DNA of 64,000 nt from positions 17,547-81,546 of the forward strand of contig FR893558.1 of the NCBI GenBank assembly GCA_000433675.1. The letters are read 5' to 3'. The notes under the pieces are model-generated. The model did no database searches and had not been told where the DNA came from. It was given only the letters and a program-made list of their open reading frames with translations. The position numbers were made by a program, and so were the translations under genes. This DNA is from Clostridium sp. CAG:433 (GTDB taxonomy: Bacteria > Bacillota_I > Bacilli_A > RF39 > UBA660). This document shows, piece after piece, positions 4,129 through 61,392 of the stretch; the first letter of the stretch is position 1, and every line of letters starts with the position of its first letter.

Positions 4129-4182
4129 GTAATCACCTAATATTATAATATCAGAAAATAAAAAAAATATCTATGAAAGATA

Positions 4183-4425: not shown

Positions 4426-4530
4426 TTTTTCACCTCCATGACCTTTAACTCACTTAATTTTATCAAATTTACAATAAAAAATCAATAATAATTGTGATTT
4501 TTGGTAAAAATAGTAAAGAGGTGATGAAAA
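4426..4530. promoter_or_regulatory. divergent promoter region rpsT(-)/gpr(+); forespore sigmaF/G-type -10-like element GGTAAAAATAG near 4506
   Basis: GGtaAaAATAg resembles sigmaF -10 (GGNNANAHTR) ~20 nt upstream of the gpr GTG start; -35 not convincing. Confidence 0.25.
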
Positions 4531-5559: not shown

Positions 5560-5632
5560 ACTTTTTAAATTATAATATATATCGACACTTTATTTAAAAT
5601 ACAGGGATTATTCTATTTATAGGGTGATTTCT

Positions 5633-6643
5633 ATGAAAAGGGCTAAATTAAAAAATCATAGTAAAAAAAAGAAGATTTTTCCTAAAAGAATATTTAAATT
5701 ATTAATTTTTATATTCGCAATATATCTGTCTTATTCATTTACATTTAATTTTTTATCAAAAAAAGACATAGATATAAAAGATAAGAAATATGTTGATTAT
5801 TTACTTAGTGCAGCATATAAAAAGGATAATAAAAAAATATTATTAGAGGAAAGTTTAAAAATGGTATCAAATATTGATTTAAAAGATCCTACGACACTTT
5901 TATCTAGTAATATAAAATCATCAAAAAGTGAAACAAAAAATAAATATACAAAAGATGCTGAAGCAAAAGAAGATGATTATAATGCATCTGTATATGAAAA
6001 GATAACATCATATGTTGAAAATCCATTAAAAGATAAAGAAAACCCTATTATATATTTATATAATACACATCAACTTGAAACATATTCTAATAGTGGATTT
6101 GAAAATTCTAATGTAAATCCAAATGTTCTTATGGCATCTTATTTACTTGCGGAAAGTCTAAATAAAAGTAATATAAATACTATTGTAGAAGATACTAATA
6201 TAAATGAATTTAATAGAGTATCCGGAATAAGTGATAATGATTTTTATAATACTACTAGAATATTTTTAAAAGAAAAAATAAATAAATATCAAAGTATTAA
6301 ATATTATATAGATATGCATAGAGATTCAGTTGATAAAAATATTTCAACATGTACAATAAATAATAAAAATTATGCAAGAGTTTTATTTGTATTAGGTACA
6401 AAAAATGAAAACTATTTAGAAAATAAGAAAAATATGACAGAATTAGATACATTAATGGATAAATATTATCCAGGATTATCTAGAGGTATTTATGAAAGAA
6501 AAGCGTATTATAACCAAGATTTAAATAAAAATATAATGTTAATTGAACTTGGTGCGAAAGAAAATACTATTGAAGAGGTAACAAATACAATTGATGCATT
6601 AACATTTATATTTAATAAATATATTAATGGTGATGATAAATGA
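5633..6643 (+). CDS. spoIIP: stage II sporulation protein P
   Basis: ATG 5633 preferred over GTG 5624 (RBS AGGGTGA 5 nt upstream). N-terminal TM; IYLYNTHQLETYS and C-terminal amidase-like region typical of SpoIIP; gpr-spoIIP adjacency as in Bacillus. Confidence 0.75.
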   Translation: MKRAKLKNHSKKKKIFPKRIFKLLIFIFAIYLSYSFTFNFLSKKDIDIKDKKYVDYLLSAAYKKDNKKILLEESLKMVSNIDLKDPTTLLSSNIKSSKSETKNKYTKDAEAKEDDYNASVYEKITSYVENPLKDKENPIIYLYNTHQLETYSNSGFENSNVNPNVLMASYLLAESLNKSNINTIVEDTNINEFNRVSGISDNDFYNTTRIFLKEKINKYQSIKYYIDMHRDSVDKNISTCTINNKNYARVLFVLGTKNENYLENKKNMTELDTLMDKYYPGLSRGIYERKAYYNQDLNKNIMLIELGAKENTIEEVTNTIDALTFIFNKYINGDDK

Positions 6644-6966
6644 AAATAAAACCTAAAAAAATCTTTAATACAATTATATTTGTTTTGTTTACGTTATATA
6701 TATCTTTTTATATAGCGTCTGTTTCTGGTTATTATGAATATGAGAAAAAAGAAGAAACAACTCTTACTAATGAAAAAATGAAAGAGTTTGAAAAAGATTT
6801 AAAGGAAGGGAAAAAAGTAGATATTAAGAAATATTTAACTGATAATACAAAAAAATATGATAATAAAGTAACAGATATAGGTAATACATTATCAGATATG
6901 ATTAATAATGGAATATCTGGTGGTCTTGAAAAAACGTTTAAAGTAGTAGAAAAATTAATTGAATAA
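6640..6966 (+). CDS. small membrane protein (YqxA-position)
   Basis: ATGA overlap with spoIIP stop; one N-terminal TM then a charged tail. Positional analogy to the gene following spoIIP in Bacillus. Confidence 0.35.
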   Translation: MKIKPKKIFNTIIFVLFTLYISFYIASVSGYYEYEKKEETTLTNEKMKEFEKDLKEGKKVDIKKYLTDNTKKYDNKVTDIGNTLSDMINNGISGGLEKTFKVVEKLIE

Positions 6967-7053
6967 TTTACATTATTTTACGATTAATACGATTATTTTA
7001 TTGAACACGCTTTTTTGATATGTTATTATGAAAAAGAAGATGGAGGTAAAAAT

Positions 7054-8628
7054 ATGGGAGATAAAAAAGGTTTAAGAAATATAATTTTAATTTTTATTGT
7101 AGTTTTGGTTGCCATTATAATTTCACTTATATTCCTTAGTAAGAAAAATAATAATATAATTCAAAATGAGAATAACAATGAAACTATATCAAATAAAAAT
7201 GCTTTTTGTATTTCTGATAATAATGGAAAATATGCTGTGTTTAATGCAGAAGGAAAACAAATAACAAAATTTGATTTTTCAAATGAATGTGATTTTTATA
7301 ATGGATCATCAGTTGTTAAAAATGATGATGGACAATATGGAATTATAAATACTAGTGGTAAATTTGTTGTAAAGTATGGTAAGTATTCTCATATATCACA
7401 AATTGAATCACTTTATAAAGCATCAAATGAAGGTGTAAATTATGTGTTAAATTCAAAAGGAAAAGAAGTTTTTAAAACAGATGATTATAAGTTTGATTTA
7501 GATGAATCATCAGATGATTCAAATATGTATAAAGCAATGTTAAGCAATGAAATTATATTATTTGACTATAATGGAAAAAAGCTAGATGAAATAAATAGCA
7601 ATTCAAAAACTTCGTATAATGACTTACGATGTAAAGATTTATTTTGTGAGATAGAAATTGATAATAAAACATATATATATAATTTAAAGGAAGGTAAAAG
7701 AATAATTACTTTAGATGGTGAAAATTATATTAATACACATAAAGGTGATATTTTAAGTGTTTATTTACAAAATAATAAATATAATGTATATAAAAACGAT
7801 AAGTTAATACTTGATGGTGTTGAAGCAAGTAATGGACTTGATATATTAGATGATGGATTTGCTGCTAGAAATAGCACGTATACATTATATGATAACGATG
7901 GTAACGTAGTAGATGATACAGTATTTTTCTACAAAGATACTAAAAATTATTTAAAAAAAGATGATTATACTAAGTCAACATATAGTTTTTATAAAGATGG
8001 TAAATTAAGTAAGAAAGATGATACATTAGTTTCACTATTTTCTAATAATGATATATCTTTACAAAATAATTATGACAATTCATTAATTATTATGAGTTCA
8101 AAAAAACAAATTCCTTGTTATGATAACTCAACTTGTTATGGATATAATTTTTACGATTTTTCAGGAAATGCTGTAAATAAAACATCTTATGCAAAAGTAA
8201 AAACTGGCTATTCTGATTATATGTTAGTTTCAGAGGATGGTAAAACAGAATACATAATAAATAAAAAGTTTGAAAAAGTAAGTGATGATTATGATTCAAT
8301 CACATCTATTATTACAAATGATAAGAAAATACATTTTTGGGAAGTATCTAAAGATGGCAAATATGCGATACTTGATGAAAATGGAAAGGTGTTAAAAGAA
8401 AATATTATAGAAAAAGTATTTGTATCATCATCAATACCTAGTGATATAATACAATTAAAATATGATGATAAGGTTGAGCTTTATAACATAAAAGAGAAAA
8501 AAGTTGTAGTAACGTTAGATAAGAATGTAACATTTAATTCATATAATGACTTATATATTAATGTAACAGAAAATGGTGTTAATAATTTTTATTCGTACAT
8601 TAATGGTAAAAAATTCTATAGTAAATAG
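7054..8628 (+). CDS. membrane-anchored protein with WG/YG-type beta repeats
   Basis: ATG 7054 behind GGAGGT RBS. TM helix IILIFIVVLVAIIISLIFL; recurring DG.YG.IN.SGK.V...Y repeats resembling WG-containing (KWG) repeats. Confidence 0.4.
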   Translation: MGDKKGLRNIILIFIVVLVAIIISLIFLSKKNNNIIQNENNNETISNKNAFCISDNNGKYAVFNAEGKQITKFDFSNECDFYNGSSVVKNDDGQYGIINTSGKFVVKYGKYSHISQIESLYKASNEGVNYVLNSKGKEVFKTDDYKFDLDESSDDSNMYKAMLSNEIILFDYNGKKLDEINSNSKTSYNDLRCKDLFCEIEIDNKTYIYNLKEGKRIITLDGENYINTHKGDILSVYLQNNKYNVYKNDKLILDGVEASNGLDILDDGFAARNSTYTLYDNDGNVVDDTVFFYKDTKNYLKKDDYTKSTYSFYKDGKLSKKDDTLVSLFSNNDISLQNNYDNSLIIMSSKKQIPCYDNSTCYGYNFYDFSGNAVNKTSYAKVKTGYSDYMLVSEDGKTEYIINKKFEKVSDDYDSITSIITNDKKIHFWEVSKDGKYAILDENGKVLKENIIEKVFVSSSIPSDIIQLKYDDKVELYNIKEKKVVVTLDKNVTFNSYNDLYINVTENGVNNFYSYINGKKFYSK

Positions 8629-47527: not shown

Positions 47528-48463
47528 ATGATAAAGATATATAAAACAAATGAAAGCAATATGATTGAAAGAGTAGATGAAGTTATTGATAATTGTTGGA
47601 TAGATTTAGTTTCACCAACAAAGGAAGAAATAGAAGTTGTTTCATTAAAAACAGGTATTGATAAAGATCTTATCTTAAAAATGCTAGATGAAGAAGAAAC
47701 TCCAAGATTTGAAAAGGAAGATGATTCAACTTTGATTGTAATAGATTCACCATATATTGGTGATGATAATGTTAAATATTCAACTCTTCCTCTTGGAATA
47801 ATTACCGGTAGTAATAAACATATACTTACAATATCATCGCAAAAACTAGAAGTTTTAAAACTTTTTAAAAGAGGAAAAATAAAAGATATAAATACATCAC
47901 TTAGATCAAGACTTACAATTCAAATATTATATGAAAATGCTAAATTATATTTAAAATACTTAAGAATGATAGATAAAGAAATTGATAAGACTGAAAAAGA
48001 ATTACATAGTTTATCAGAAAATGAAGAACTTATTAATGTACTTAATATTGAAAAAAGTTTAGTATATTTTATTACATCTTTAAAAGAAAATAAAAGGGTT
48101 ATTGAAAAGATTAATAGAGGGAATGTTATTCCTATGTATGAAGAAGATTTAGATCTTTTAGAAGATGCATCAATAGAAAATGAGCAAGCAAGTGAAATGG
48201 CTAATATTTATAGAGAAATATTAAGTAGTGTATCAGATACATATGCAACTTTAATATCTAACAATTTAAATATTGCTATGAAAATATTAACAAGTATAAC
48301 AATTATTTTCTCAGTTCCTACTATGGTAGCGTCTTTTCTTGGCATGAATGTTCATCTTGGAATTATTTCTGATTTAAAATACGGTTTTTTAATTATAATT
48401 GGTTTTTGCGTTATTGTTTCAATTATAATTGCACTTATATTTAAAAAGAAAAAATTATTATAA
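47528..48463 (+). CDS. corA: CorA-family Mg2+/Co2+ transporter
   Basis: Two C-terminal TM helices with GMN signature (FLGMNVHLG). Confidence 0.8.
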
Positions 48464-48530
48464 GACTTATGGTCTTTTTTTATTGCAAATAAAAATGTAT
48501 TTGAATAATTTATTAATAGAAGGTGTTAAA

Positions 48531-49091
48531 ATGATTAAACTAATTAAAGAACAAATTAAACTTATAAAAGAAAAAGATCCTGCGGTTAATAGTATTTTTG
48601 AAGCATTATTATATCCTAGTTTAAAAGTACAAATTTATTATAAAATATCACATTATTTATATTTAAAAAAACATTATTTTTTAGCAAGATTAATATCAGA
48701 AAAGGCAAAAAGAAAAACAGGTATTGAAATTCATCCAGGTGCTAAAATAGGTAAAAGGTTATTCATTGATCATGGTTTTGGTGTTGTTATAGGAGAAACT
48801 GCTATTATTGGTGATAATGTAACAATTTATCATGGCGTTACTTTAGGAGGAACTGGCAAAGAAAAAGGTAAAAGACATCCAACTGTAGAAAATAATGTAA
48901 TGATAGGAGCATCTGCTAAAGTACTTGGAAATATTGTTATTGGTGAAAATTCTAAAATAGGTGCAGGAGCAATAGTTTTAAATGACATACAAAAAAATGT
49001 AACTGCAGTAGGTGTTCCAGCAAAAGTTGTTAAAACGAATGATATTTCTTTTGATAAAGAAAGAATAAACGAAATAATAAAGCTTTTATAA
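48531..49091 (+). CDS. cysE: serine O-acetyltransferase
   Basis: N-terminal SATase helix domain + hexapeptide repeats ([44 protein letters not shown]). Confidence 0.8.
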
Positions 49092-49213
49092 AATCTTATT
49101 GTATATTTTTTATGTTGTGTTATAATATTTTTACATTGATTGACTTGCCAAGTGTCAATAGTTAAAATTTAGTCGATAATTTATATTTTTAGGCAAGAAA
49201 AATATATCTATTC

Positions 49214-49247
49214 GGGTACACTTTTTTAAAGGTGTACTCTTTTTTTG
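49214..49247 (+). terminator. rho-independent terminator (after cysE)
   Basis: GGGTACAC-10 nt-GTGTACTC then TTTTTTTG. Confidence 0.5.
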
Positions 49248-49265
49248 TTAAGAGGTTAATTTAGT

Positions 49266-49451
49266 ATGAATCAAATTATAGAAGTAGAAACCTTAAATAT
49301 ATAAGATATGATATATGAAATAAGAGGAAAACAAGTAATGTTAGATTCTGATTTGGCAAGATTATATGAATGTATAAACGGTAAAAATATTTGTGGTCCC
49401 AATTTGGGACCACAAGTTAATAGAATTCGAACAATGCTATATGCATTATAA
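49266..49451 (+). pseudogene. truncated tandem paralogue of the ORF6N-domain gene (in-frame TAA at codon 13, internal deletion, divergent tail)
   Basis: Own RBS AAGAGG; MNQIIEVETLNI* then MIYEIRGKQVMLDSDLARLYE..., about 85% nt identity to 49520-49590, then diverges at a 25-bp palindrome. Confidence 0.5.
49391..49415. repeat. 25-bp perfect palindrome TTGTGGTCCCAA-T-TTGGGACCACAA
   Basis: 12-bp GC-containing arms, single central base; located exactly where homology between the two ORF6N copies ends. Confidence 0.8.
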
Positions 49452-49483
49452 TAATAAAAATAATTAAAAATTGGAGGATATAA

Positions 49484-50257
49484 ATGTACAAACTAAAAGA
49501 AGATTTAAGTATAGAAAATATGATATATGAAATAAGAGGTAGGCAAGTAATGCTAGATTGTGATTTAGCAAAATTATATAATGTTGAAACTAAAAGAATA
49601 AATGAGGCGGTAAAAAATAATCCTGACAAATTTCCGGAAAGATTTTATTTTAGAATAAATGAAAATGAATTTTTTTCTTTGAAGTCGAAAATTTCGACTT
49701 CAAAAGGTGGTTCTAGAAAAGGACATAATGTATTCACAGAACAAGGGATTGCAATGCTATCTACAATATTAAAATCCAAAGTAGCAGTAGAAACAAGTAT
49801 AAGAATAATGGATGCATTTGTAAAAATGAGAAAATATATTTCAGCAAATTTAATAGAACAAGACAATATGAAAAATATGCTTATTAAACATGATAACGAA
49901 ATAAAATTACTTCAAGAATCATTTTCAAAATTAGAGGAAAAAGAAAAAATAAATCATATATTTTATGATGGACAAATATATGATGCATATTCACTATTAA
50001 TTGATATATTTAAAGGTGCAAAAGAAGAAATAATTATAATAGATAATTATGCAGACAAAAGTATTTTAAATATGATAACGAACCTAAATGTAAAAGTAAC
50101 TATTGTTACTAGAAAATTTAATTTATTAAAAGATATAGATATAAAAAAATATAATAGGCAATACCATAATTTGAAAGTAATATACAGTGATAAGTTTCAC
50201 GATAGATTCATAATACTTGATAAAAAAGTATTGTATCATTCAGGAGCGAGCTATTAA
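49484..50257 (+). CDS. ORF6N/KilA-N-like DNA-binding domain protein
   Basis: MIYEIRGRQVMLDCDLAKLYNVETKRINEAVKNN...FPERFYF...GHNVFTEQGIAMLSTILKS matches the ORF6N domain pattern. Confidence 0.55.
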   Translation: MYKLKEDLSIENMIYEIRGRQVMLDCDLAKLYNVETKRINEAVKNNPDKFPERFYFRINENEFFSLKSKISTSKGGSRKGHNVFTEQGIAMLSTILKSKVAVETSIRIMDAFVKMRKYISANLIEQDNMKNMLIKHDNEIKLLQESFSKLEEKEKINHIFYDGQIYDAYSLLIDIFKGAKEEIIIIDNYADKSILNMITNLNVKVTIVTRKFNLLKDIDIKKYNRQYHNLKVIYSDKFHDRFIILDKKVLYHSGASY

Positions 50258-50440
50258 TAATTTAAAAGTAATATGCAGTGATAAGTTTCATGATAGATTT
50301 ATAATAATTGATAGAACAGATTTATATCATTCATGAGCAAGTTATAAAGATTTAGGTAATAAATGTTTTGGAATTAACAAGATAAAAGATGATGAATATC
50401 TAGAAAATATATTAATAAAAACAGGTTTATAAAATATTTG
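50180..50440 (+). repeat. imperfect tandem duplication of the 3' end of the ORF6N gene
   Basis: ATAATTTGAAAGTAATATACAGTGATAAGTTTCACGATAGATTCATAATA (50180-50229) vs ATAATTTAAAAGTAATATGCAGTGATAAGTTTCATGATAGATTTATAATA (50260-50309); second copy has an internal TGA and a longer tail. Confidence 0.6.
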
Positions 50441-50495
50441 CATTATAAGCTGAATTATATTATAATATATGTGCTTCAAAAAAGGGGTGAATAAA

Positions 50496-51227
50496 ATGAA
50501 TTATAGTAAAAATAAAGAAATCTTAAATAATTTAATGTTAAAATATGGTTTATCTAAAGATGAAAGAAAAGAATTTTTTAAAATTATATATAAAATATTT
50601 AGACATAAAGAGTTCCAAAGAAGAATGACAAGTGAATTTAATCATCATAATGATATAACACTTGGTTATCATGTGCTTGAAGTAGCTCTTTGTACATACA
50701 AAACATGTAAAAAGAAAATAAAAAAGGGTATAAAAGTTAATACTGGTGTAGCAGTTAAAATAGCAATGCTTCATGATTTTTATGAATTACCTTGGCAGAA
50801 TAATAAAGAATCATCATCTAAGAATTTAATTCATAAACATGGATTTCGTCATCCAATAGAGGCCGCTATTAACGCTATATATTATTATCCATTTTTATTT
50901 AAAGATAGAAAAGAAAGTATGATGATAATAGATGGTATTGTTCATCATATGTATCCACTTGCAGTACCAGTACTTACAGGATTTGATACAAATGAAATAG
51001 AGCTTAAAAATTATGATAAGGTTAAAAAAATAGATAATGAATTATTAGAACAAATAATTTATTCTACAAATAGAGGAAGAATAATTAAATTATCATTATG
51101 CAAAAGTAGATATAAAGAAGGACGAATCGTATCAAATTCAGATACATTAGTATCAATTAATAACTATGAAAGTCTAAAAGGTATACCTGCTCTTATTACT
51201 GGAGTAAATAAAAATATAGAAGTGTAA
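50496..51227 (+). CDS. HD-domain metal-dependent phosphohydrolase-like protein
   Basis: H...HD...H...H...D spacing (GYHVLEVA, AMLHDFYE, IHKHGFRH, VHHMYP); ATG 50496 after AAAGGGGTGA. Confidence 0.45.
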   Translation: MNYSKNKEILNNLMLKYGLSKDERKEFFKIIYKIFRHKEFQRRMTSEFNHHNDITLGYHVLEVALCTYKTCKKKIKKGIKVNTGVAVKIAMLHDFYELPWQNNKESSSKNLIHKHGFRHPIEAAINAIYYYPFLFKDRKESMMIIDGIVHHMYPLAVPVLTGFDTNEIELKNYDKVKKIDNELLEQIIYSTNRGRIIKLSLCKSRYKEGRIVSNSDTLVSINNYESLKGIPALITGVNKNIEV

Positions 51228-51233
51228 AATAGG

Positions 51234-51262
51234 CGATAAAGAAATCTTTATCGTTTATTTAT
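51234..51262 (+). terminator. rho-independent terminator
   Basis: CGATAAAG-aaat-CTTTATCG then TTTATTT. Confidence 0.5.
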
Positions 51263-51306
51263 ATTTTTGTTAAAATATGGTATATTTTAGTATAGAGGTG
51301 AAAAAA

Positions 51307-51993
51307 ATGGTAGCACGATTAACAGAAGAACAATTAAATTATTTTGATAATCCGGACTTTTATCAAGATTATATGGAAATGTTTATATTTAGATTAACAT
51401 TTTCAAATATGGCAATAGAAAGAGATTTAGGTGAAATAGCAGATAGTAAAAATGCAATTAGATTAAGAGACAACTATAGAGCTTTTCAAAAATTGCTTAC
51501 TATGTTTTCGTACGATATGAGTGAAGATCTTATTATTGATATTGCAAATACAATAAATAAAAGTTCAATGTATATTTCAAATGGTTATAGAAAATTAGGT
51601 AGAACTTTAGGAGATACTAATGAACCAATATCAGATCCAAAAGATATAAAAAGTGATATGGAGAAATTACTTTATAATTATTATAATGAATGGAATAACT
51701 TAGATCCATATTTAAGAGAGGCAAAATTTAATATTGAATTTTTAAGAATACATCCATTTGAAGATGGTAATGGTAGAACAAGTAGACTTTTACTTAACTT
51801 TAATTTGATGAAACAAAAAATAGCACCTGTAATAATAACAGATGATTTAGTTGATGATTATTTTAACGCAAGAAATAATTTTGATGAAGAGTGGATTGCT
51901 AATATGTTTAGAGTTCAATCAGAAAAAGAAATTGAAGTAATAGATGGATTAACTAAAGAATTAAAAAAAGAAAATGAAGGACTAAAACTATGA
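51307..51993 (+). CDS. Fic/Doc-family protein (putative AMPylase/phosphocholinase)
   Basis: Canonical Fic motif HPFEDGNGRTSRLL; extended -10 TGGTATATT upstream. Confidence 0.75.
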   Translation: MVARLTEEQLNYFDNPDFYQDYMEMFIFRLTFSNMAIERDLGEIADSKNAIRLRDNYRAFQKLLTMFSYDMSEDLIIDIANTINKSSMYISNGYRKLGRTLGDTNEPISDPKDIKSDMEKLLYNYYNEWNNLDPYLREAKFNIEFLRIHPFEDGNGRTSRLLLNFNLMKQKIAPVIITDDLVDDYFNARNNFDEEWIANMFRVQSEKEIEVIDGLTKELKKENEGLKL

Positions 51994-53165
51994 GTAATGT
52001 TGGAATAATAGGTGGAGGAGTATCAGGTGTAATAAGCGCAATATATGCAAGTAAGAATGGTAATAAAGTAACTATTTTAGAAAAGAATAATGATATACTT
52101 AAGAAGCTTTTAATAACAGGTAGTGGTAGATGTAATTACTTTAATAGTGATCAAAATATAAATCATTATCATTCTAAAAACGAAGAATATTTAAAAGAAA
52201 TTATTACAAAAGAAAATACAAAAGAATTATGTAAATTTTATGACAGTATTGGTATTGTTCCTAAAATAAAAGATGGTTACTATTATCCATATTCAAATAT
52301 GGCAATAAGTGTTAAAAATGCACTTGTGACTGAAGTTTTAAAATTAAATATAAAAGTAATATGTAATTATGATGTAAAAAATATAGATTATAAAAATAAT
52401 GAGTTTATTATTAATAATGATAAACATTTTGATAAACTTATAATAAGTACAGGTTCTAAAGCATATCCAAAAACAGGATCAGATGGATTTGGATATAGTC
52501 TTGTTAAAAAATTAGGACACACTATAAATGAAGTAAAACCTGCACTTGTAAGTTTATGTTCAGATGATAAAATATTAAATATAATTTCGGGAGTAAGAGC
52601 AAATGCTAAAATATCCTTATATCACTTTGATGAATTATTAAAAGAAGAAATAGGTGAAGTACAATTTGTTAAAAATGAAGTATCTGGAATTTGTACATTT
52701 AATTTAAGTTATTTAGTTACTAAAAATAATAATGTAAGAATTAATTTTATGCCATTTATAAAAGTAGAAGAATATGATGACTTTATGTTTAAAAATAATA
52801 ATAAAAGAGTAAAAGAAATATTAAATGGAATATTAAATCCAAAACTAATACTAGCGATAATTAAAAGATGTAATATAAATGAAGAAAAGTATTTTTATGA
52901 ACTATCTAAAAAAGAAAAAGATTTATTAAAAGAAAATTTAACTAGTTTTAGAATTGATATAAAAGGCAAAGGACCATTTGATAAAGCACAAATATGTATG
53001 GGCGGTGTACCATTAAATGAAATTGACATAAAAAGTATGAAGTCAAAAATAAATGAAAACTTATATATAACAGGTGAAATGCTTGATGTAAATGGTGATT
53101 GTGGTGGATATAATTTAACCTTTGCATTTATTTCTGGATATCTTTCAGGAAAGGATATAAAATGA
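51990..53165 (+). CDS. HI0933/YhiN-family FAD-binding flavoprotein
   Basis: GIIGGGVSGVISA dinucleotide-binding fold; ATGA overlap with Fic stop. Confidence 0.65.
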   Translation: MSNVGIIGGGVSGVISAIYASKNGNKVTILEKNNDILKKLLITGSGRCNYFNSDQNINHYHSKNEEYLKEIITKENTKELCKFYDSIGIVPKIKDGYYYPYSNMAISVKNALVTEVLKLNIKVICNYDVKNIDYKNNEFIINNDKHFDKLIISTGSKAYPKTGSDGFGYSLVKKLGHTINEVKPALVSLCSDDKILNIISGVRANAKISLYHFDELLKEEIGEVQFVKNEVSGICTFNLSYLVTKNNNVRINFMPFIKVEEYDDFMFKNNNKRVKEILNGILNPKLILAIIKRCNINEEKYFYELSKKEKDLLKENLTSFRIDIKGKGPFDKAQICMGGVPLNEIDIKSMKSKINENLYITGEMLDVNGDCGGYNLTFAFISGYLSGKDIK

Positions 53166-54730
53166 TTAGAGTAAGACAAGTAAAAGTAAATATAGATGAT
53201 AATTCTTTAGAAAATATAAAAAAGTGTACTAGTAAAAAATTAAATATAAAAGATGAAGATATACATAATTTAAAAATAATTAAAGAGAGTATTGATGCTA
53301 GAGGAGAAGTAAATTATATTTATGAGGTAGAAATAGAAACTAATTTAGAAAATAAATTACTTAAAAATAAAGATGTATATATTCCAAAAGATGAAAGTTA
53401 TAAATTTGAAATAACAGGAACTAAACAAATGAAAGAAAGACCTATAATTGTAGGAAGTGGCCCTGCTGGATTATTTTCAGCATATATGCTTTCACAAAAT
53501 GGTTATAAACCTATAATTATAGAAAGAGGAGAAAAAGTAGAAGATAGAGTAAAAACTATAGAAAACTTTTGGAAAACTGGTAAATTAAATAAAAATTCTA
53601 ATGTACAATTTGGAGAAGGTGGCGCAGGTACTTTTTCTGATGGTAAGTTAAATACACTTGTTAAAGATAAAAACTATAGAATGAAAAAAGTATTTGAGAT
53701 ATTTGTAGAGTGTGGGGCACCAAGTGATATACTATATAAAAATAAACCACATATTGGTACTGATTTACTTAGAAATGTAATAATAAACATGAGAAATAAA
53801 ATTATAGATATGGGTGGAACATTTTATTATAATTCTTGTCTTACAGATATAGTTATAAATAATAATAAAGTAACAGAAATAATTATAAATGATAAAGAAA
53901 AAATCAAATGTGAAACACTTATTTTAGCGTTAGGTCATAGTGCAAGAGATACATTTAAAATGCTTTATGAAAAAGGTATTAATATGATTCAAAAACCATT
54001 TGCGGTAGGCGTTAGAATAGAACATAAACAAGATATAATTAATAAATCGCAATATGGAAAATATAGTAAGTATTTACCTAATGCAGATTATAAATTAACT
54101 CATACTTGCACCGATGGAAGAGGAGTATATTCATTTTGTATGTGCCCTGGTGGATTTGTAGTAAATGCATCAAGTGAAGAAAATCATTTAGTAATAAATG
54201 GAATGAGTAATCATAAAAGAAATGAAGAAAATTCAAATAGTGCGATAGTTGTTCAAGTATCAAATAAGGACTTTGGTAATAATATATTTGATGGTATGAA
54301 TTTTCAAAGACATTTAGAAGAAAAAGCATATAGTCTTGGTAATGGTTTAATTCCAGTTCAACTTTTTTCAGATTATGAAAACAATACTATTTCAAAAGAA
54401 TTTAAAAGTGTAAAACCAATATTTAAGGGTAATTATAAATTTACTAATATAAATGATATATTTCCAGAATTTATAAATAATGATCTAAAAGAAGCAATTA
54501 ATTATTTTAATAATAAAATAGATGGATTTAATAGTGGTGACGCTATTATCGCAGGTGTTGAAACAAGAACATCATCACCAATTAGAATAGTAAGAGACGA
54601 AAATGGAATGAGCAATATAGATGGGATTTATCCTATAGGAGAAGGTGCTGGTTATTCTGGAGGAATAACAACTAGCGCAATGGACGGAATAAAAATTTCA
54701 GAATTAATTGCTAAAATATATAAGAATTAA
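53162..54730 (+). CDS. FAD-dependent dehydrogenase (uncharacterised family, COG2509-like)
   Basis: IIVGSGPAGLFSA Rossmann motif after a ~90-aa N-terminal domain; ATGA overlap with preceding gene. Confidence 0.55.
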   Translation: MIRVRQVKVNIDDNSLENIKKCTSKKLNIKDEDIHNLKIIKESIDARGEVNYIYEVEIETNLENKLLKNKDVYIPKDESYKFEITGTKQMKERPIIVGSGPAGLFSAYMLSQNGYKPIIIERGEKVEDRVKTIENFWKTGKLNKNSNVQFGEGGAGTFSDGKLNTLVKDKNYRMKKVFEIFVECGAPSDILYKNKPHIGTDLLRNVIINMRNKIIDMGGTFYYNSCLTDIVINNNKVTEIIINDKEKIKCETLILALGHSARDTFKMLYEKGINMIQKPFAVGVRIEHKQDIINKSQYGKYSKYLPNADYKLTHTCTDGRGVYSFCMCPGGFVVNASSEENHLVINGMSNHKRNEENSNSAIVVQVSNKDFGNNIFDGMNFQRHLEEKAYSLGNGLIPVQLFSDYENNTISKEFKSVKPIFKGNYKFTNINDIFPEFINNDLKEAINYFNNKIDGFNSGDAIIAGVETRTSSPIRIVRDENGMSNIDGIYPIGEGAGYSGGITTSAMDGIKISELIAKIYKN

Positions 54731-54779: not shown

Positions 54780-54815
54780 TTGACAAATAAGTGTAAAAAA
54801 TATATATTATTGTTA
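54780..54815 (+). promoter_or_regulatory. sigmaA-type promoter TTGACA-17-TATATT
   Basis: 54780 TTGACA ... TATATT ~25 nt before RBS AGAGGGG. Confidence 0.4.
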
Positions 54816-54839
54816 AGTACTAATCAGAGGGGCAAGTAT

Positions 54840-57062
54840 ATGACAATAGGTGTAAATTTAAAAACAATAGTAAAAAATTATTCATTATGTGAAAAGTTAT
54901 TTAGAGAAGATTGTAAAGACAATAATTATGTAAAAGGAATATTGGATTTTTTTTCTAATGTTGAAATAAATAGTGATATTATACGTGATTTAAAAAGACT
55001 AAAAAAAGAAGGGAATAAAATAGATTTATACGTACCTAATTATTTAGTTTATGATAATAAAATAATAATGGAAAAAGTTAAAAGATTATTAGAATTTGAT
55101 GAGTTTTCTTTTGACAATATAAAAAAATATAATTCATTAGATGAATTAAAAAATGATAATATAGATTGTTTTGTTTCTGATTTTAATATTGGTGGACAAG
55201 GAATAATTTTACCATATCAAGTAATTAAATTAGATAGTAGTGATTATGAAAAATTTGAATTAGTAAAAAAGGTTTATAACGCTAATTATGATATCAATTT
55301 AAGAAAAATTAATGAACTTGAATATAATACTCAAAAAGCAAGAACAGGTATTCCATCTGTAGATAAACCATGGAGAAAGTTTTATTCAGAAAAAGAAAAA
55401 AGTGTAGTAATGCCAAAGAAAACTATGTATGAATATTTAAGATGTGGCGCTGAAAAAATGTCTAATAAGACTGCTCTTATTTATTATGGAAGAAAATTTA
55501 CATATAAAGAATTGATGGAAAAAATTGATAAGTACGCATCATCATTTATAAGTTATGGAATAAAAGAAGGAGATGTTGTATCAATATGTATGCCAAATGC
55601 ACCAGAAGCAATTTTTATGGTATATGCATTAAATAAAATTGGTGCAATTGCAAATATGATACATCCTTTAAAAAGTCCTAATGAAATAAAAGAATATGTA
55701 AATAAAGTTGATTCTAAAATGTTACTTGTTTTAGATACGTCACTTCAAAATATAGAGGGTATAACAAATGAATTATGCACTGATAAAATAGTTTCGGTAT
55801 CAGTTGGTAATTCAATGCCTTTATATATGAAACTTATATTTGAAAAATCAAAAAAATTAAATTTAACAAAAGAATATATTTCTCTTAAAGATTTTGAAAA
55901 TAATGGAAAAAAAGTAAAAAATTCATTACAAGTAGATTATAAAGAAAATGCTGGCGCAGCAATAATGCATACTGGTGGTACAAGCGGTAAATCAAAGGCT
56001 GTTTTACTTACAAATGATAATCTTAATTCAATGGTTCATGCTCAAAGAGTAACAGCTAAAAACTTTGCTGAAGGTGATGTAATGCTTACAATAATGCCTG
56101 TATTCCATGGATTTGGATTATGCAGTTCTGTTCATATGCCTTTATCATATGGTGTATCAGTAGTTTTATGGCCAAAGTTTGAATCTAAAAAGTTAAAATC
56201 AATGTATGAAAAAAATAACGTTAATCACATGTTTGGAATACCAAAGTTATTTGAATGTTTAATAAAAGAAAATGTTGATTTAACTAATGCTGGATATCTT
56301 GTTTCAGGTGGGGAAAAAATTGAACAAAAAAGAGAACAAAAAATTAATAATGGGTTCTTGGAGAATGGTTCAAGATTTAACTTAAAAAAAGGTTATGGTT
56401 TAACAGAAGCAACAGCGGGTACAACTTTATCTGATGATTATAGTAATAGACTCGGAAGTATTGGAATACCACTTGTATGTAATGATTTTAAAGTAGTAAA
56501 ACCAGGAACAGAAGAAGAACTAGGATATTATGAAAAAGGTGAATTTTGTATTTCAGGCCCAACTGTTATGAAGTGTTACTATAATGATGAAGAAGAAACT
56601 AAAAAAACATTAAGAAAACATTCTGATGGAAAAATATGGCTTCATACAGGTGATATGGGATATATGGATGAATCTGGGCTTTTATATTACACAGATAGAT
56701 TAACAAGAATGTATACATCTGGAGGATTTAACGTATATCCACCACATATAGAAGAAGTTATATTAAAATTAGATGAAATAGAATCATGTGCAGTAGTACC
56801 AATGAAACACCCAAGTAAAAATATTAAAGTGCCAAAGGTATATATAATTATGAAAAAAGGTTATGAACTTAATGAAGATTTATTAAATAAAATAAAAAAT
56901 ATTTGTTCTTTAAATCTTGATTTATATCATCAACCATTTAGTATTGAGAGTATAGATTCATTCCCAATAACAAATTTAGGAGAAAATATTGGTAAAGTAG
57001 ATTATAAAAAATTAGAAGAAAATGCAAATGAAACAGTGAAGGTAAAAAAATTAGTAAAGTAA
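54840..57062 (+). CDS. AMP-dependent synthetase/ligase (acyl-CoA/acyl-ACP synthetase-like) with ~190-aa N-terminal domain of unknown function
   Basis: Adenylation motifs TGGTSGKSKAV, GYGLTEA, K-terminal lysine region; adenylation domain begins near residue 200. Confidence 0.7.
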   Translation: MTIGVNLKTIVKNYSLCEKLFREDCKDNNYVKGILDFFSNVEINSDIIRDLKRLKKEGNKIDLYVPNYLVYDNKIIMEKVKRLLEFDEFSFDNIKKYNSLDELKNDNIDCFVSDFNIGGQGIILPYQVIKLDSSDYEKFELVKKVYNANYDINLRKINELEYNTQKARTGIPSVDKPWRKFYSEKEKSVVMPKKTMYEYLRCGAEKMSNKTALIYYGRKFTYKELMEKIDKYASSFISYGIKEGDVVSICMPNAPEAIFMVYALNKIGAIANMIHPLKSPNEIKEYVNKVDSKMLLVLDTSLQNIEGITNELCTDKIVSVSVGNSMPLYMKLIFEKSKKLNLTKEYISLKDFENNGKKVKNSLQVDYKENAGAAIMHTGGTSGKSKAVLLTNDNLNSMVHAQRVTAKNFAEGDVMLTIMPVFHGFGLCSSVHMPLSYGVSVVLWPKFESKKLKSMYEKNNVNHMFGIPKLFECLIKENVDLTNAGYLVSGGEKIEQKREQKINNGFLENGSRFNLKKGYGLTEATAGTTLSDDYSNRLGSIGIPLVCNDFKVVKPGTEEELGYYEKGEFCISGPTVMKCYYNDEEETKKTLRKHSDGKIWLHTGDMGYMDESGLLYYTDRLTRMYTSGGFNVYPPHIEEVILKLDEIESCAVVPMKHPSKNIKVPKVYIIMKKGYELNEDLLNKIKNICSLNLDLYHQPFSIESIDSFPITNLGENIGKVDYKKLEENANETVKVKKLVK

Positions 57063-57074
57063 TGGAGGCTTTTT

Positions 57075-58649
57075 ATGGCAAATATAGCATTTGATGTAGA
57101 TGGAGTAATGACAAATTTAGCAAAATTCCAATTAGATACTGGAAGAAAATATTTTGGGGAAGATTCTGTTAAGGATCCTACAAAATATGATGTAAAGGAT
57201 ATTTTTGATGTTAGTAAAGAAGAAAGAGAAAAATATTGGTTAAAATATATATGGCCATATTGTATAACTGAAGAAATGAGAAAAAACTTAAGCGAATTAC
57301 CTAAAAAGTTAAAGGCAGATGGCCATAAAATTTATATAATAACTGGCAGAGTTCACACAACAGAAGATGGAATTAGAGGTAAATTATTTAGAAAAATGCT
57401 TTTATCTTGGCTTAAAAAAAATGGCTTTGAATATGATGAAATCATTTATGTTAATGAAAACAATAGTGCAGAGGAAAAACTTAATGCATGTAAAGAAAAT
57501 AATATTGATTTAATGATAGAAGATAAAACAGAAAATATTGAGGTAATCAAAGATGTATCAAGTGTAATATGTGTTAATGCAGAATATAATGAAAATGCAG
57601 ATTTTGGTGATATTGTTAGAATAGATAATTTTGATAATGGTTATGAAGTAATTAATTCTGTTTTAGAAAAAGATAATAAAAATTTTAAATTGTTATCTAA
57701 TGAAGAGATGGATGAATTATCACAAGATGAATTAAAAAAATATTATGAAAAAATGAGAGAATATTATAAAAATAGACCATTAGATCCAAATTTAAAAAAA
57801 CAAGAAAAAACATATCAAGTAACTAGTAAAGTTGGAATACCTTTATTTAAACTTGTTTTTAAACCTCATATGTTTGGCAAAGAAAATATACCAAAAGAAA
57901 AAAAAGGTAATATTTATGTTAGTAATCATTTAGGTTCACTTGATCAATTTCCAATTATAAGTATGCTTGGACCTGATTCACCAATGCATTTTTTAGCAGC
58001 ATCAACACTTTTAGGTTTAAAAAGAGCGCTTCTTTATACAAAAACAGGTGCAATATTTGTAGATAGAAATGATCCACAAAGTAGAAAAGAATCAAAAGAA
58101 AAAATGATGCAGATATTATTAAATGGTGGTAATGTATTCTTATTTCCAGAAGGAACAAGGAATTATTTAAGAGAAGGACAAGCAAAAGAAATATTTGAAA
58201 AATATATAAACGATGATATTCCATTTGAAGATTTTTATGAAAAAGTAAAAAAGAATAAAACATCACAAGTAAATTATTTAGAAGAATTATTAAAAAATAA
58301 TACAATAACAAAAGAAGAATTTGTTAAAAATATTTATGATGTTGATAGTTTCTTGAAGGAATTAGTAACAGATAAAAGAATAAATGAATCAGATTATTAC
58401 GAAAATATTTTCTTACCATTCAAATATGGAGCTGTCGCAATGGCAAAAGAAACAGGTGCAACAATTGTTCCATTCGCAGTAAATAATAATTACTTTAATT
58501 CTGATCCTCTTTTAGTACGTGCTGGAAAACCAATGAAAGTAAATGTAGAAGATGATTTAGAAGAAAAAACTTCTGAACTTAGAGATGAAATAAAAACTAT
58601 GGTTTGGGAAAATGCGGAATATGAGAAAACATTAAAATTAAGAAAATAA
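57075..58649 (+). CDS. fusion protein: HAD-like (5'-nucleotidase-type) domain + PlsC/LPLAT acyltransferase domain
   Basis: N-terminus IAFDVDGVMTN (HAD motif I DxDG); C-half VSNHLGSLDQFPI (HX4D) and FPEGTRN block III. Confidence 0.6.
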   Translation: MANIAFDVDGVMTNLAKFQLDTGRKYFGEDSVKDPTKYDVKDIFDVSKEEREKYWLKYIWPYCITEEMRKNLSELPKKLKADGHKIYIITGRVHTTEDGIRGKLFRKMLLSWLKKNGFEYDEIIYVNENNSAEEKLNACKENNIDLMIEDKTENIEVIKDVSSVICVNAEYNENADFGDIVRIDNFDNGYEVINSVLEKDNKNFKLLSNEEMDELSQDELKKYYEKMREYYKNRPLDPNLKKQEKTYQVTSKVGIPLFKLVFKPHMFGKENIPKEKKGNIYVSNHLGSLDQFPIISMLGPDSPMHFLAASTLLGLKRALLYTKTGAIFVDRNDPQSRKESKEKMMQILLNGGNVFLFPEGTRNYLREGQAKEIFEKYINDDIPFEDFYEKVKKNKTSQVNYLEELLKNNTITKEEFVKNIYDVDSFLKELVTDKRINESDYYENIFLPFKYGAVAMAKETGATIVPFAVNNNYFNSDPLLVRAGKPMKVNVEDDLEEKTSELRDEIKTMVWENAEYEKTLKLRK

Positions 58650-58657
58650 AATAAATA

Positions 58658-58692
58658 AGACAAAATTTAATAAAAAATTTGTCTTTTTTTAT
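58658..58692 (+). terminator. rho-independent terminator
   Basis: AGACAAAATTT-aataaa-AAATTTGTCT then TTTTTTTAT. Confidence 0.5.
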
Positions 58693-58734: not shown

Positions 58735-60573
58735 ATGTATAGTTCATTATATTTTCAAATATGTAGTTTATTTTATATTGTATTACTTATGGTAATATTT
58801 TTCTCAAAAGACAAAATAAAAAGTAAAGAAAATAAAATATTCTCAATATTGATAGTTACAAATTTTGTAGGATTGTTACTTGATTTAGCAAGTACATATA
58901 TGGCATTAACAGATTTGAACAATCCATTATTAAACTTTATATCAAAATTATATTTGGTTTATTTATTAACTTGGATTTCGTTATTTACATTTTATACATT
59001 TGTTATATCATATAGTAAAAATAATAGTACGGAGTTTTCTAAAACTACAAAGTATAAAAATGTGAAACAGGTGTCACTTATTTTATATTTTGTAATGGCA
59101 CTTTTATTATTAGTATTACCATTATATAACTTTAGCGAAAATGGAGTCATATATACATATGGACCAGGAGCTAACATTTCATATATAATTGGTGGTTTAT
59201 TAGATGTTGTATCAGTAATTATGATTATTTCTAATATAAGAAGAGTAAAGAAAATAAAATATTTACCACTTATATTTTATATCGCAGCATCAGCATCAGT
59301 AATATTAATACAAAAACTTCAACCTGAAATACTTTTAGTAACTGCAGTTGAATCATTTGTTACATTCTTACTTTACTTTACAATTGAAAACCCTGATGTT
59401 AAATTAATTGAACAACTCAATTTAGCTAAAGAACAAGCAGAAAGAGCAAACAGAGCAAAAACAGAGTTTTTAAGTAGTATGTCACATGAAATAAGAACAC
59501 CACTTAATGCTATTGTTGGATTTAGTAATTCATTAAGTGATAACAAAAATATACCAGATGAAGCAAAATCAGATGTAAAAGACATATTAGTTGCATCAGA
59601 TAGTTTACTAGAAATAGTAAATGGTGTACTTGATATTTCAAAAATTGAAGCAAACAAAATAGAAATAGTAAAAAAAGAATATGATACTAAAAAGATGTTT
59701 GATGAACTTGCAAAATTAACAAAAGTTAGAATAGGTGATAAACCAATTGATTTTATAACTAAGTTTGATGAAACTTTACCTAGAGTATTATATGGTGATC
59801 AAACAAGAACAAAACAAGTAATATTAAATATTTTAACAAATGCTGCTAAATATACAGATAAGGGTAAAATTATATTTAGCGTTCAGTCAGTAGTTAAAGA
59901 TAATGTATGTAGAATGATTATATCTGTAGAAGATACTGGTCGTGGAATAAAGAAAGATAGTATAAATAAATTATTTACTAAGTTTGAAAGATTAGATGAA
60001 GAAAATAATACAACAATAGAAGGAACAGGTCTTGGACTTGCAATTACAAAAAAATTATTAGAGATGATGCATGGTAAAATTGTTGTACAAAGTGAATATG
60101 GAAAAGGATCTAAATTTACTATATCTTTAGATCAAAGAATTGTAAAAAATCCAACTATTAAATTAGATGAAGAAAAGACAGATGATATAGAAATTATTGA
60201 TTTATCTTCTAAAAAAGTATTAGTTGTAGATGATAATAAATTAAATATAAAAGTTGCAACTAGATTATTATCACCATACAATGTAGAAATAGTATCAGCT
60301 GAATCAGGTATGGATTCAATTGAAATACTTAAAAAAGATAAAAAGATTGATCTTGTTCTTATGGATGATATGATGCCAAAAATGAGCGGAACAGAAACAT
60401 TAAAAGAAATAAAGAAAAACAATCTATATGATGGACCTATAATCGCTCTTACTGCAAATGCACTTACTGGTATGAGAGAGAAATATATTGAACATGGGTT
60501 TACAGATTATTTATCAAAACCAATAGAAAAACCAGAATTAAATAGAATTTTAAAAACTTATTTGACAAAATAA
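58735..60573 (+). CDS. hybrid sensor histidine kinase (7-TM sensor + HisKA + HATPase + receiver)
   Basis: Seven hydrophobic helices; H-box SHEIRTPLNAI; N/G1/G2 boxes (GTGLGLAI); C-terminal REC with DD...D...K. Confidence 0.8.
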   Translation: MYSSLYFQICSLFYIVLLMVIFFSKDKIKSKENKIFSILIVTNFVGLLLDLASTYMALTDLNNPLLNFISKLYLVYLLTWISLFTFYTFVISYSKNNSTEFSKTTKYKNVKQVSLILYFVMALLLLVLPLYNFSENGVIYTYGPGANISYIIGGLLDVVSVIMIISNIRRVKKIKYLPLIFYIAASASVILIQKLQPEILLVTAVESFVTFLLYFTIENPDVKLIEQLNLAKEQAERANRAKTEFLSSMSHEIRTPLNAIVGFSNSLSDNKNIPDEAKSDVKDILVASDSLLEIVNGVLDISKIEANKIEIVKKEYDTKKMFDELAKLTKVRIGDKPIDFITKFDETLPRVLYGDQTRTKQVILNILTNAAKYTDKGKIIFSVQSVVKDNVCRMIISVEDTGRGIKKDSINKLFTKFERLDEENNTTIEGTGLGLAITKKLLEMMHGKIVVQSEYGKGSKFTISLDQRIVKNPTIKLDEEKTDDIEIIDLSSKKVLVVDDNKLNIKVATRLLSPYNVEIVSAESGMDSIEILKKDKKIDLVLMDDMMPKMSGTETLKEIKKNNLYDGPIIALTANALTGMREKYIEHGFTDYLSKPIEKPELNRILKTYLTK

Positions 60574-60615: not shown

Positions 60616-60969
60616 ATGGACAGAAGTTATTTAGAAGAAAATGGCGTAGATGTAAATGCTGGGCTTGAATTACTTGGTGATATGGATATGTATAATGAAA
60701 CAATGGGTGATTTTTTAGAAGAAATAAATGAAAAATTACCAAAACTTGTTGAATACAAAAATAATAATGATATGCCAAATTATGCTATCATTGTTCATTC
60801 AATAAAAAGTGATTCAAAATATTTAGGATTTACTAAACTTGCAGAACTTGCATACAATCATGAGATGAAAAGCAAAGCAAATGATACATCTTATGTTAAT
60901 GCAAACTATGATGAATTACAAAAGGAAATTGATCGTATAATTAAAATTATTAAAGAATATTTAGGATAA
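60616..60969 (+). CDS. histidine phosphotransfer (Hpt) protein
   Basis: VHSIKSDSKYLGFTKLAELA fits Hpt H-x-x-K-G-s-a-x-x-l-G; 117 aa. Confidence 0.55.
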   Translation: MDRSYLEENGVDVNAGLELLGDMDMYNETMGDFLEEINEKLPKLVEYKNNNDMPNYAIIVHSIKSDSKYLGFTKLAELAYNHEMKSKANDTSYVNANYDELQKEIDRIIKIIKEYLG

Positions 60970-60987
60970 TTGGAGGTATTTAAATTT

Positions 60988-61392
60988 ATGGGCGAAAAAT
61001 TAGTTTTAATGCCGGATGTTAGAGAACAAACTATTCTTGTGGTAGATGATTCAAACATTACAAGGAGTTTGATTGAAAGAGTTTATAAAGATCAATATAA
61101 AATTCTTATGGCATCAAATGGAAGAGAGGCTATTGATATAGTAGATACTATGCCAGAAGGTGTTATAGTAGCAATTTTACTTGATTTAAACATGTCGGAT
61201 CTTGATGGCTTTGCAGTGCTTGATTACTTCAAAGAAAAAGATTTATTTAATAAGATACCAGTATCGATAATTACTGGTGATAGTACGAAGGAAACTATAA
61301 ATAGATGTTTATCATATAATATAGTTGACATATTAATTAAACCATTTAGTGGATTTGATATTGAAAGAGTAGTCGCAAAAATGGTAAAATAG
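60988..61392 (+). CDS. single-domain response regulator (receiver only)
   Basis: VVDDS, LLDLNM (phospho-Asp), ITG, IKPF; no output domain; ATG 60988 behind TTGGAGGT. Confidence 0.75.
   Translation: MGEKLVLMPDVREQTILVVDDSNITRSLIERVYKDQYKILMASNGREAIDIVDTMPEGVIVAILLDLNMSDLDGFAVLDYFKEKDLFNKIPVSIITGDSTKETINRCLSYNIVDILIKPFSGFDIERVVAKMVK

Follow-up and report, generated by a model that had tools for sequence, protein, structure and literature searches.

A ligase and a phosphatase-acyltransferase fusion encoded side by side in a gut Bacilli genome: a candidate three-step unit for lipid building

Introduction

In Escherichia coli, the Aas protein, a 2-acylglycerophosphoethanolamine acyltransferase and acyl-acyl carrier protein (acyl-ACP) synthetase, re-esterifies free fatty acids into glycerolipids, and in Mycobacterium tuberculosis the protein Rv2483c ("PlsC") is annotated as a phosphoserine-phosphatase-like HAD domain joined to a 1-acylglycerol-3-phosphate acyltransferase. 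Chlamydia trachomatis has a split form of Aas, encoded by the adjacent genes CT775 and CT776, which specify a lysophospholipid acyltransferase and the acyl-ACP synthase AasC (PMC5693948). In land plants, the bifunctional sn-2 glycerol-3-phosphate acyltransferases/phosphatases GPAT4/6/8 carry an N-terminal HAD-type phosphatase that converts their own lysophosphatidate product to monoacylglycerol, and in the paralogues GPAT5/7 the phosphatase domain is still present but inactive (PMC11127019). The present analysis deals with two adjacent genes at positions 54840-58649 of a 64,000-nucleotide stretch of DNA from Clostridium sp. CAG:433 (contig FR893558.1, assembly GCA_000433675.1; hereafter the window), a genome of the RF39 lineage of Bacilli. 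The first gene encodes a ligase and the second a fusion of a HAD domain with a PlsC-type acyltransferase.

Members of RF39, an uncultured order of Bacilli from the gut, have no fatty-acid synthesis and depend on exogenous fatty acids; how uncultured gut Bacilli with small genomes make their membranes out of host or dietary lipids is still an open question (PMC6784871). The gene pair described here is probably a three-step lipid-building unit, in which three catalytic modules are genetically welded to one another; judged by their sequence families, two of the three are clearly of lipid type. Split Aas systems and HAD-acyltransferase fusions are each already known, in Chlamydia and in plants; the main new results are the identity assigned from sequence to the N-terminal domain of the ligase, and what appears to be a rule that the operon keeps at least one live HAD.

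Organization of the gene pair

The window has a G+C content of about 25% and a uniform strand bias. The reading frame of the ligase is open over 54780-57062 on the forward strand, and the ATG at 54840 is most likely the start of the gene, because the TTG at 54780 belongs to a -35 hexamer and an AGAGGGG ribosome-binding site precedes the ATG. The hexamer is part of a promoter-like site, TTGACA-17-TATATT (54780..54808, forward strand), which is a consensus match only (11/12) and was the top-scoring site in a scan over 54.5-61.8 kb. Read from this ATG, the ligase gene (54840..57062, forward strand) encodes 740 residues, comprising a decayed HAD domain and an ANL adenylating ligase. The fusion gene (57075..58649, forward strand; 524 residues) has a GGAGG ribosome-binding site and starts 12 nucleotides after the ligase stop codon, so that the two open reading frames (ORFs) bear out the spacing given in an earlier note on this DNA, which had been made from the letters alone. 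Immediately 3' of the fusion gene lies an AT-rich hairpin that resembles a terminator, with seven consecutive U after it (58651..58692, forward strand; folding free energy -7.9 kcal/mol, z -3.05 against shuffled sequences), and the histidine kinase gene beyond it has a separate promoter-like site and a ribosome-binding site. Based on the short gap, the promoter-like site, the two ribosome-binding sites, the hairpin and the separate promoter-like site of the kinase gene, the ligase and fusion genes appear to form one co-transcribed two-gene operon.

The HAD-PlsC fusion protein

The first 195 residues of the fusion protein (57075..57659, forward strand) form an intact NT5C-like HAD phosphatase domain with a helical C1-type cap, as indicated by its invariant motifs, a structural model and fold matches. 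Pfam NT5C (PF06941, the 5'(3')-deoxyribonucleotidase family) aligns to residues 4-193 with an E value of 3e-5 and 24.3 bits against a gathering score of 24.8, and most members of the HAD-PlsC family carry a precomputed PF06941 match. The N-terminal HAD of DxDG type that the earlier note had placed on the acyltransferase is real: motif I reads DVDGV at residues 7-11, and motifs II to IV are represented by T90, K135 and D150. In an alignment of 27 homologues that reaches down to 27% identity, D7, D9, T90, R92, K135 and the pair E149-D150 are invariant. The AlphaFold2 (AF2) model of the whole fusion has a predicted local distance difference test score (pLDDT) of 91.7 and a predicted template-modelling score (pTM) of 0.80, and the helices of the cap are visible in it. 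Foldseek retrieved from the PDB the Thermotoga maritima PlsC structure (5kym) together with C1-capped HAD phosphatases, among them the deoxyribonucleotidase-like 3bwv (TM score 0.74), beta-phosphoglucomutase and AphA. When PDB sequences were searched with a profile of the HAD domain, no characterised close relative was retrieved, the best match being 1xpj, a hypothetical protein (E 4e-4). With its four motifs in place and capped HADs as fold matches, the domain looks catalytically competent as far as its residues tell.

Stand-alone relatives of this HAD in Clostridia are clear NT5C members, scoring 36-44 bits. Among the more distant relatives, a large family of about 480 residues (P0065-P0120) combines an NT5C-like HAD with an inosine-uridine nucleoside hydrolase and in some members with an additional PF07632 domain; these fusions are the nearest relatives of the HAD outside lipid enzymes and presumably constitute a module for degrading nucleotides to bases.

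The acyltransferase domain spans residues 263-524 (57861..58646, forward strand). Pfam Acyltransferase (PF01553) aligns to residues 268-469 with an E value of 5e-19 and 68.9 bits (gathering score 23), and the domain has the motifs NHxxxxD (284-290), G325..R331 and FPEG (357-360), in which N284, H285, D290, G325, R331 and F357-P-E-G360 are invariant in the 27 homologues. The best match of this domain, by sequence as well as by fold, is 5kym. Its sequence thus shows the features by which PlsC/LPLAT enzymes are recognized, namely PF01553, HX4D, FPEGTR and the motif II Gly...Arg. The more specific model TIGR00530 (1-acylglycerol-3-phosphate O-acyltransferase) gave 67.8 bits against a cut-off of 102.95, with coverage limited to profile positions 6-103 because of an insert of about 80 residues. 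This helical insert (residues 364-445; 58164..58409, forward strand), located between FPEGTR and block IV in the alignment and the model, is charged and folds into six helices in the model; a family search with it gave no match. About half of the family members have it, as does the stand-alone PlsC of locus L007 (one of the related loci described below); the forms of 450 residues lack it.

The architecture is shared by some 60 protein clusters in the protein search, none of which is named in any source. In a metagenome assembly collection, 141 indexed blocks contain exactly this fusion protein, which indicates that it is widely recovered in assemblies.

The catalytic core of the ligase

The ANL (acyl/aryl-CoA ligase-type) core of the first protein (55350..57059, forward strand) is supported by NCBIfam and PDB sequence matches. 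Pfam AMP-binding (PF00501) covers residues 204-581 with an E value of 4e-69 and 233.6 bits (gathering score 29.9), AMP-binding_C (PF13193) covers residues 637-714 with 27.5 bits (gathering score 24.5), and the motifs A3, A5, A8 and A10 are all found, as TGGTSGKSK, GYGLTE, DRLTRM and GKVDYK. By these matches the protein is shown to belong to the ANL superfamily with its catalytic motifs intact. The top NCBIfam models are those of long-chain-fatty-acid--CoA ligase (FadD; NF004114, NF006523 and others), all below their cut-offs; the best score, 284.3 bits against an equivalog cut-off of 766, denotes similarity at the level of the family only. Two relatives of the ligase are labelled "long-chain fatty acid--CoA ligase" at NCBI, and the closest PDB sequences are generic ANL CoA ligases, i.e., 4-coumarate-CoA ligases, luciferases and fatty-acyl-CoA synthetases. 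To judge from this family placement, its substrate is probably a long-chain fatty acid that the cell scavenges. The 740-residue form of the protein is represented by cluster P0159, which is 97% identical and has 918 members.

The N-terminal domain of the ligase is a decayed HAD

The residues preceding this core (1-170; 54840..55349, forward strand) had been taken in the earlier note for a novel domain. No Pfam family was found on them, a word-index search with the domain alone returned only fragments of close relatives, derived from assembly frameshifts, and HMMER, run exhaustively against 1.84 billion representative proteins, gave seven matches, of which P0155 was the sole diverged one. Comparison of the single sequence with the fusion family by hhalign (21% probability) and pairwise BLASTP against HAD domains (E 0.013-0.037) were suggestive but insufficient.

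The identity of the domain emerges from its relatives. At locus L007, an orthologous operon consists of a ligase of 808 residues whose N-terminus is an intact HAD (MRIGIDIDGVLT...), followed by a plain PlsC of 268 residues and then by the same histidine kinase. When the whole ligase was used as query, its nearest relatives (50-55% identity) were proteins of 777-790 residues combining PF06941 and PF00501, all of them with an N-terminal DIDG. Intermediates were found as well: P0160, 50% identical over 99% coverage, has lost motif I (INLGT) and still matches an intact HAD over its N-domain with an E value of 2e-23, P0155 has a shortened cap, and the ligase of locus L013 begins with VVFNLNLIL. A profile of four decayed domains, which needed L013 and P0155 to reach a clear HAD match, aligned to the HAD profile by hhalign with 90.8% probability (E 1.2e-6, 78 co-linear columns). 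In the protein of the window, motif I reads NLKT (N6-L-K8) in place of DxDG, the threonine of motif II is replaced by proline (P66), motif III is gone, D114 is all that is left of motif IV and the cap is shortened; the four-motif signature of HAD enzymes is therefore broken.

The AF2 model of the N-terminal domain has a pLDDT of 78.5, and its top Foldseek matches in the PDB, almost all of them from the HAD superfamily, are weak (E 0.009-0.1, TM score 0.4-0.5); the alignment behind the model included HAD homologues, so that it counts as supporting and not as independent evidence. As to selection, the ratio of nonsynonymous to synonymous substitution rates (dN/dS) against locus L001 was 0.41 over the N-domain, as compared with 0.13 over the ligase core and 0.23 over the active HAD, in a single pairwise comparison with a low-coverage assembly that is 82% identical; the value of 0.41 points to relaxed constraint on a domain that is apparently still selected.

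Based on the profile match, the intermediates and the HAD-ligase relatives, the supposedly novel domain is, at the level of its sequence, a degenerate and catalytically dead NT5C-like HAD, the remnant of a HAD-ligase fusion.

The idea that the N-domain exists as a separate gene in relatives (P0121, 224 residues) was rejected, because the P0121 contig is of low coverage with a frameshift and the 740-residue form has so many members. As a separate observation, the ligases of L002, L004, L005 and L045, whose partner is a HAD-PlsC, have no HAD remnant and begin with a conserved helical extension of 42 residues (…LSELSEKEKKLRNxYL…G.IQGP), which is loosely similar to the linker that joins the two domains of the fusion protein.

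Placement of the HAD domain among related operons

The genomic context was compared in a sample of 80 loci taken from species-representative genomes; apart from one Borrelia isolate record, these are metagenome-assembled genomes (MAGs), with labels such as Bacilli, Erysipelotrichaceae, "Tenericutes", "Mollicutes" and "Clostridium sp. CAG". The ligase lies directly beside a PlsC homolog in about 36 of them, often in the order PlsC-ligase-PlsC. Where a HAD is present, four arrangements occur: an intact HAD-ligase with a plain PlsC (L007, L091/92 and L093); a ligase with the 42-residue extension only and a HAD-PlsC (L002, L004, L005 and L085-88, and also L089/90, with an extra PlsC between them); an intact HAD-ligase with an intact HAD-PlsC (L096); and a ligase with a dead HAD beside an intact HAD-PlsC (the window, L013, L094 and L095). 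In L082-84 the fusion protein is identical to that of the window, and L001 is a close relative of the window locus.

In every HAD-carrying operon examined, the ligase, the acyltransferase or both bear an intact HAD, and the dead-HAD ligase stands beside an intact HAD-PlsC in all four of its lineages and never with a HAD-less PlsC. The ligase is within the same gene cluster in 11 of the 12 HAD-PlsC lineages. The two checks named in the earlier note, on the presence of HAD motifs II-IV and on co-conservation of the genes, thus both turned out in its favour. To judge from the sequences, this distribution reads as that of one accessory activity which was fused to either of two pathway partners, after which the surplus copy, being redundant, decayed. 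The mobility of the domain would further provide a Rosetta-stone argument that ligase, PlsC and HAD share a pathway.

A stricter version of the rule, in which no operon has two intact HADs, is refuted by L096. In this locus (4001-7735) the motifs appear to be intact in both the HAD-ligase and the HAD-PlsC, and it looks transitional, as before decay; its ligase-borne HAD has Gly in place of the Arg that otherwise invariably follows motif II. Other variations on the unit were seen in the sample: in L054 (1924-6561) it is duplicated in tandem (ligase-PlsC-ligase-PlsC), L011 (105-3538) has two tandem ligase genes, and tandem PlsC-PlsC pairs without a ligase are found in many MAGs of Clostridia (Acutalibacteraceae).

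Proposed function and alternative readings

It can be proposed, at a probability of roughly 45%, that the operon joins three activities, namely fatty-acid activation, acylation of a phosphorylated glycerol and then dephosphorylation to a neutral lipid. The ligase would turn a scavenged fatty acid and ATP into acyl-AMP and then into acyl-CoA or acyl-ACP; the PlsC domain would move the acyl group onto glycerol-3-phosphate or lysophosphatidate; and the HAD, as a Mg-dependent phosphatase, would dephosphorylate the product to mono- or diacylglycerol, neutral lipids that could be used, e.g., as glycolipid precursors. The HAD on the ligase of the window would have become redundant once an active HAD was present on the acyltransferase and is probably kept for a structural role. 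In GPAT and LPAAT enzymes the motif II Arg and FPEGTR bind the phosphate of the acceptor, and a phosphorylated acceptor with later dephosphorylation fits better here because this Arg, R331, is invariant. By analogy with what is known of RF39-type gut Bacilli, their exogenous-fatty-acid lifestyle also fits an operon for scavenging.

Several observations weigh against this three-step scheme. A crude regular-expression search found no ACP-like motif within the window. The HAD is of NT5C type and of nucleotidase-like descent, its stand-alone relatives in Clostridia have no lipid neighbours, and its next-nearest relatives are the NT5C-nucleoside hydrolase fusions. The modelled helical C1 cap is closed, a form typical of HADs that act on small soluble molecules and not on membrane lipids. 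No ligase was seen within 6 kb of the HAD-PlsC at L003, which makes this locus the sole exception among the 12 lineages, and most PlsC-ligase-PlsC operons of related MAGs have no HAD; because of the latter, the phosphatase would have to be seen as an accessory step.

The NT5C descent and the closed cap make a nucleotide substrate a serious rival, if a doubtful one. According to it, the HAD is a true nucleotidase acting on a nucleotide of the acyl-activation cycle, most obviously the AMP released by the ligase or else the 3'- or 5'-phosphate of a CoA-derived nucleotide; its hydrolysis would drive the reaction forward or relieve product inhibition, and the lipid product would stay phosphorylated as in Aas. 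NT5C is the best Pfam HAD family for the domain, whose C1-type cap is rich in conserved aromatics (F27, F44, Y58 and Y62) like that of nucleotidases; the stand-alone relatives exceed the NT5C threshold, the fusions with inosine-uridine nucleoside hydrolase have an architecture of nucleotide degradation, and the HAD can reside on the very ligase that produces AMP. That substrates assigned to HADs from context can mislead is evidenced by yeast Phm8, formerly called lysophosphatidate phosphatase, which proved to be a nucleotidase in vivo (PMC4039369). However, the destruction of AMP would be costly to a genome-reduced scavenger, and pyrophosphate hydrolysis already renders acyl activation irreversible. 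The acyltransferase to which the HAD is fused in many lineages, moreover, makes or uses no nucleoside monophosphate if its donor is acyl-ACP. The identity to nucleotidase-type relatives is merely 30-39%, and no solved nucleotidase is close in sequence.

The order of the last two steps may also be inverted, which seems unlikely. In this case a glycerol-3-phosphate, lysophosphatidate or lysophospholipid derivative would be dephosphorylated before acylation by PlsC, as in the conversion of monoacylglycerol to diacylglycerol. The HAD does precede the acyltransferase in the domain order, the model is confident over both domains together (pTM 0.80), and the gut is rich in monoacylglycerols and free fatty acids from lipid digestion. 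The invariant R331 and FPEGTR argue instead for an acceptor that is still phosphorylated, and in plant GPAT4/6/8 the phosphatase works after acyl transfer (PMC11127019).

It is very unlikely that an ordinary housekeeping ligase merely stands beside an ordinary PlsC, adjacent through shared ancestry only and with HADs as evolutionary baggage, for although ligase-PlsC pairs without a HAD occur in many related MAGs and the HAD on the ligase of the window did decay, the four catalytic motifs of the PlsC-borne HAD are invariant down to 27% identity, the active HAD has a dN/dS of 0.23, an intact HAD is present in every operon of the clade that was examined, with a dead HAD always beside a live one, and two different partners of the same operon acquired the domain in independent fusions.

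The three-step scheme can be taken further, although the extended form is quite unlikely as a whole: ligase, phosphatase and acyltransferase would constitute a physical assembly line and a main membrane-building route in gut Bacilli without fatty-acid synthesis, in which the dead HAD pairs with the live one and tethers a non-covalent Aas-like complex, while the adjacent kinase senses the lipid state. HADs of NT5C-like type are commonly dimers.

Neighbouring genes

The operon is followed, on the forward strand, by genes for a hybrid histidine kinase (58735-60573), an Hpt protein (60616-60969) and a receiver-only protein (60970-61392), all assigned by Pfam. The three genes follow the pair in all close HAD-type loci, and the kinase lies 3' of the ligase/PlsC pair in L002-L005, L007, L013, L085-88 and L091-93. 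No Pfam family matched the multi-pass sensor region of the kinase (about 6-7 transmembrane segments). One may speculate that the kinase is linked to the function of the operon, e.g., by sensing the state of the membrane lipids.

The upstream flanks of HAD-type loci differ and include RNase J, DNA polymerase III/LspA and flavoproteins. In the window, the genes directly upstream of the operon (51990-54730) are a pair of flavoprotein genes with a four-base overlap at their ends, one encoding an aminoacetone-oxidase-family (HI0933-like) protein and the other a FAD-dependent protein of 522 residues with a FAD-depend_C domain; they are not conserved beside the operon in other loci. Comparison of 47528-51993 with positions 1-4919 of L082-L084 shows that the nearby genes are the same and those farther upstream differ: CorA and a hexapeptide transferase in the window occupy the place of mraY-ftsW in L082-84, with ORF6N and Fic genes between. 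In L082-84 the whole block is flanked by mraY-ftsW and murG-murB. The region upstream of the operon is thus variable, possibly of mobile origin.

At the far end of the window, the earlier note had connected the operon with a "GDSL/PlsC pair" at 0.3-1.7 kb as part of an elaborate lipid remodelling. This link found no support: the ORF at 593-946, in a different frame from the PlsC-like ORF, has no family match, which leaves the GDSL assignment unsupported, and the PlsC-like ORF (1035-1739) is 53 kb away. The frame of the latter is open from 933 and contains no ATG, GTG or TTG before the catalytic motif NHSCLMD, which suggests a non-canonical start or a frameshift. The next ORF, at 1794-2306, gave a weak match to zinc phospholipase C (E 0.0015).

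Significance

A conserved operon that couples activation, acyl transfer and dephosphorylation would be a concrete and testable candidate for a membrane-lipid route in these organisms. The locus is also a clean natural example of a domain that switches between two pathway partners, and it illustrates how a redundant copy decays and how a pseudo-enzyme domain is kept. In addition, an annotation blind spot is corrected, since the orphan-looking N-domain of the ligase is, by its sequence, a decayed HAD.

Comparison with known systems

The three-part module was not found described in the literature searched, and the same holds for a HAD alternating between ligase and acyltransferase and for a pseudo-HAD remnant on a ligase; the components can nevertheless be compared one by one. 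As in E. coli Aas, a PlsC-type lysophospholipid acyltransferase is combined with an ANL enzyme, which in Aas serves to re-esterify a free fatty acid into a glycerolipid. Aas is, however, a single membrane polypeptide with the acyltransferase first, whereas the pair described here consists of two genes with the ligase first, a HAD phosphatase has been added, no transmembrane segments were noticed in its proteins and the ligase is nearer to FadD-type CoA ligases than to Aas. With the Aas model NF006386 (cut-off 1221 bits) the ligase scored 158.8 bits, over its C-terminal half only, and the fusion protein 18.8 bits. Of the earlier description of the pair as a split Aas-like system, the division of labour, activation followed by transfer, is still the natural reading; orthology with Aas is contradicted by these low scores, by the separation into two proteins and by the reversed gene order. 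By analogy, the pair may work like a split Aas plus a phosphatase. The Chlamydia genes CT775/CT776, likened here by their description, belong to another phylum and have no HAD phosphatase domain.

With regard to the phosphatase, the HAD of the fusion protein shares its helical cap and all four catalytic motifs with the NT5C family; it differs in being fused to lipid enzymes and in scoring just below the family cut-off. Like the fusion protein of the window, Rv2483c is a bacterial HAD-acyltransferase fusion, but its HAD is of IB type and its host an actinobacterium. The closest precedent, as an analogy at the level of architecture, is plant GPAT4/6/8, in which an N-terminal HAD-type phosphatase is likewise joined to an acyltransferase of the PlsC superfamily. 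Unlike the proteins of the pair, these are eukaryotic enzymes of the endoplasmic reticulum membrane that serve cutin and suberin formation and have no dedicated ligase partner, and their HAD is not known to be of NT5C type. The inactive phosphatase of GPAT5/7 parallels the dead HAD of the window, with the difference that in the plants the dead copy is found on a paralogue of the acyltransferase and in the window on the ligase.

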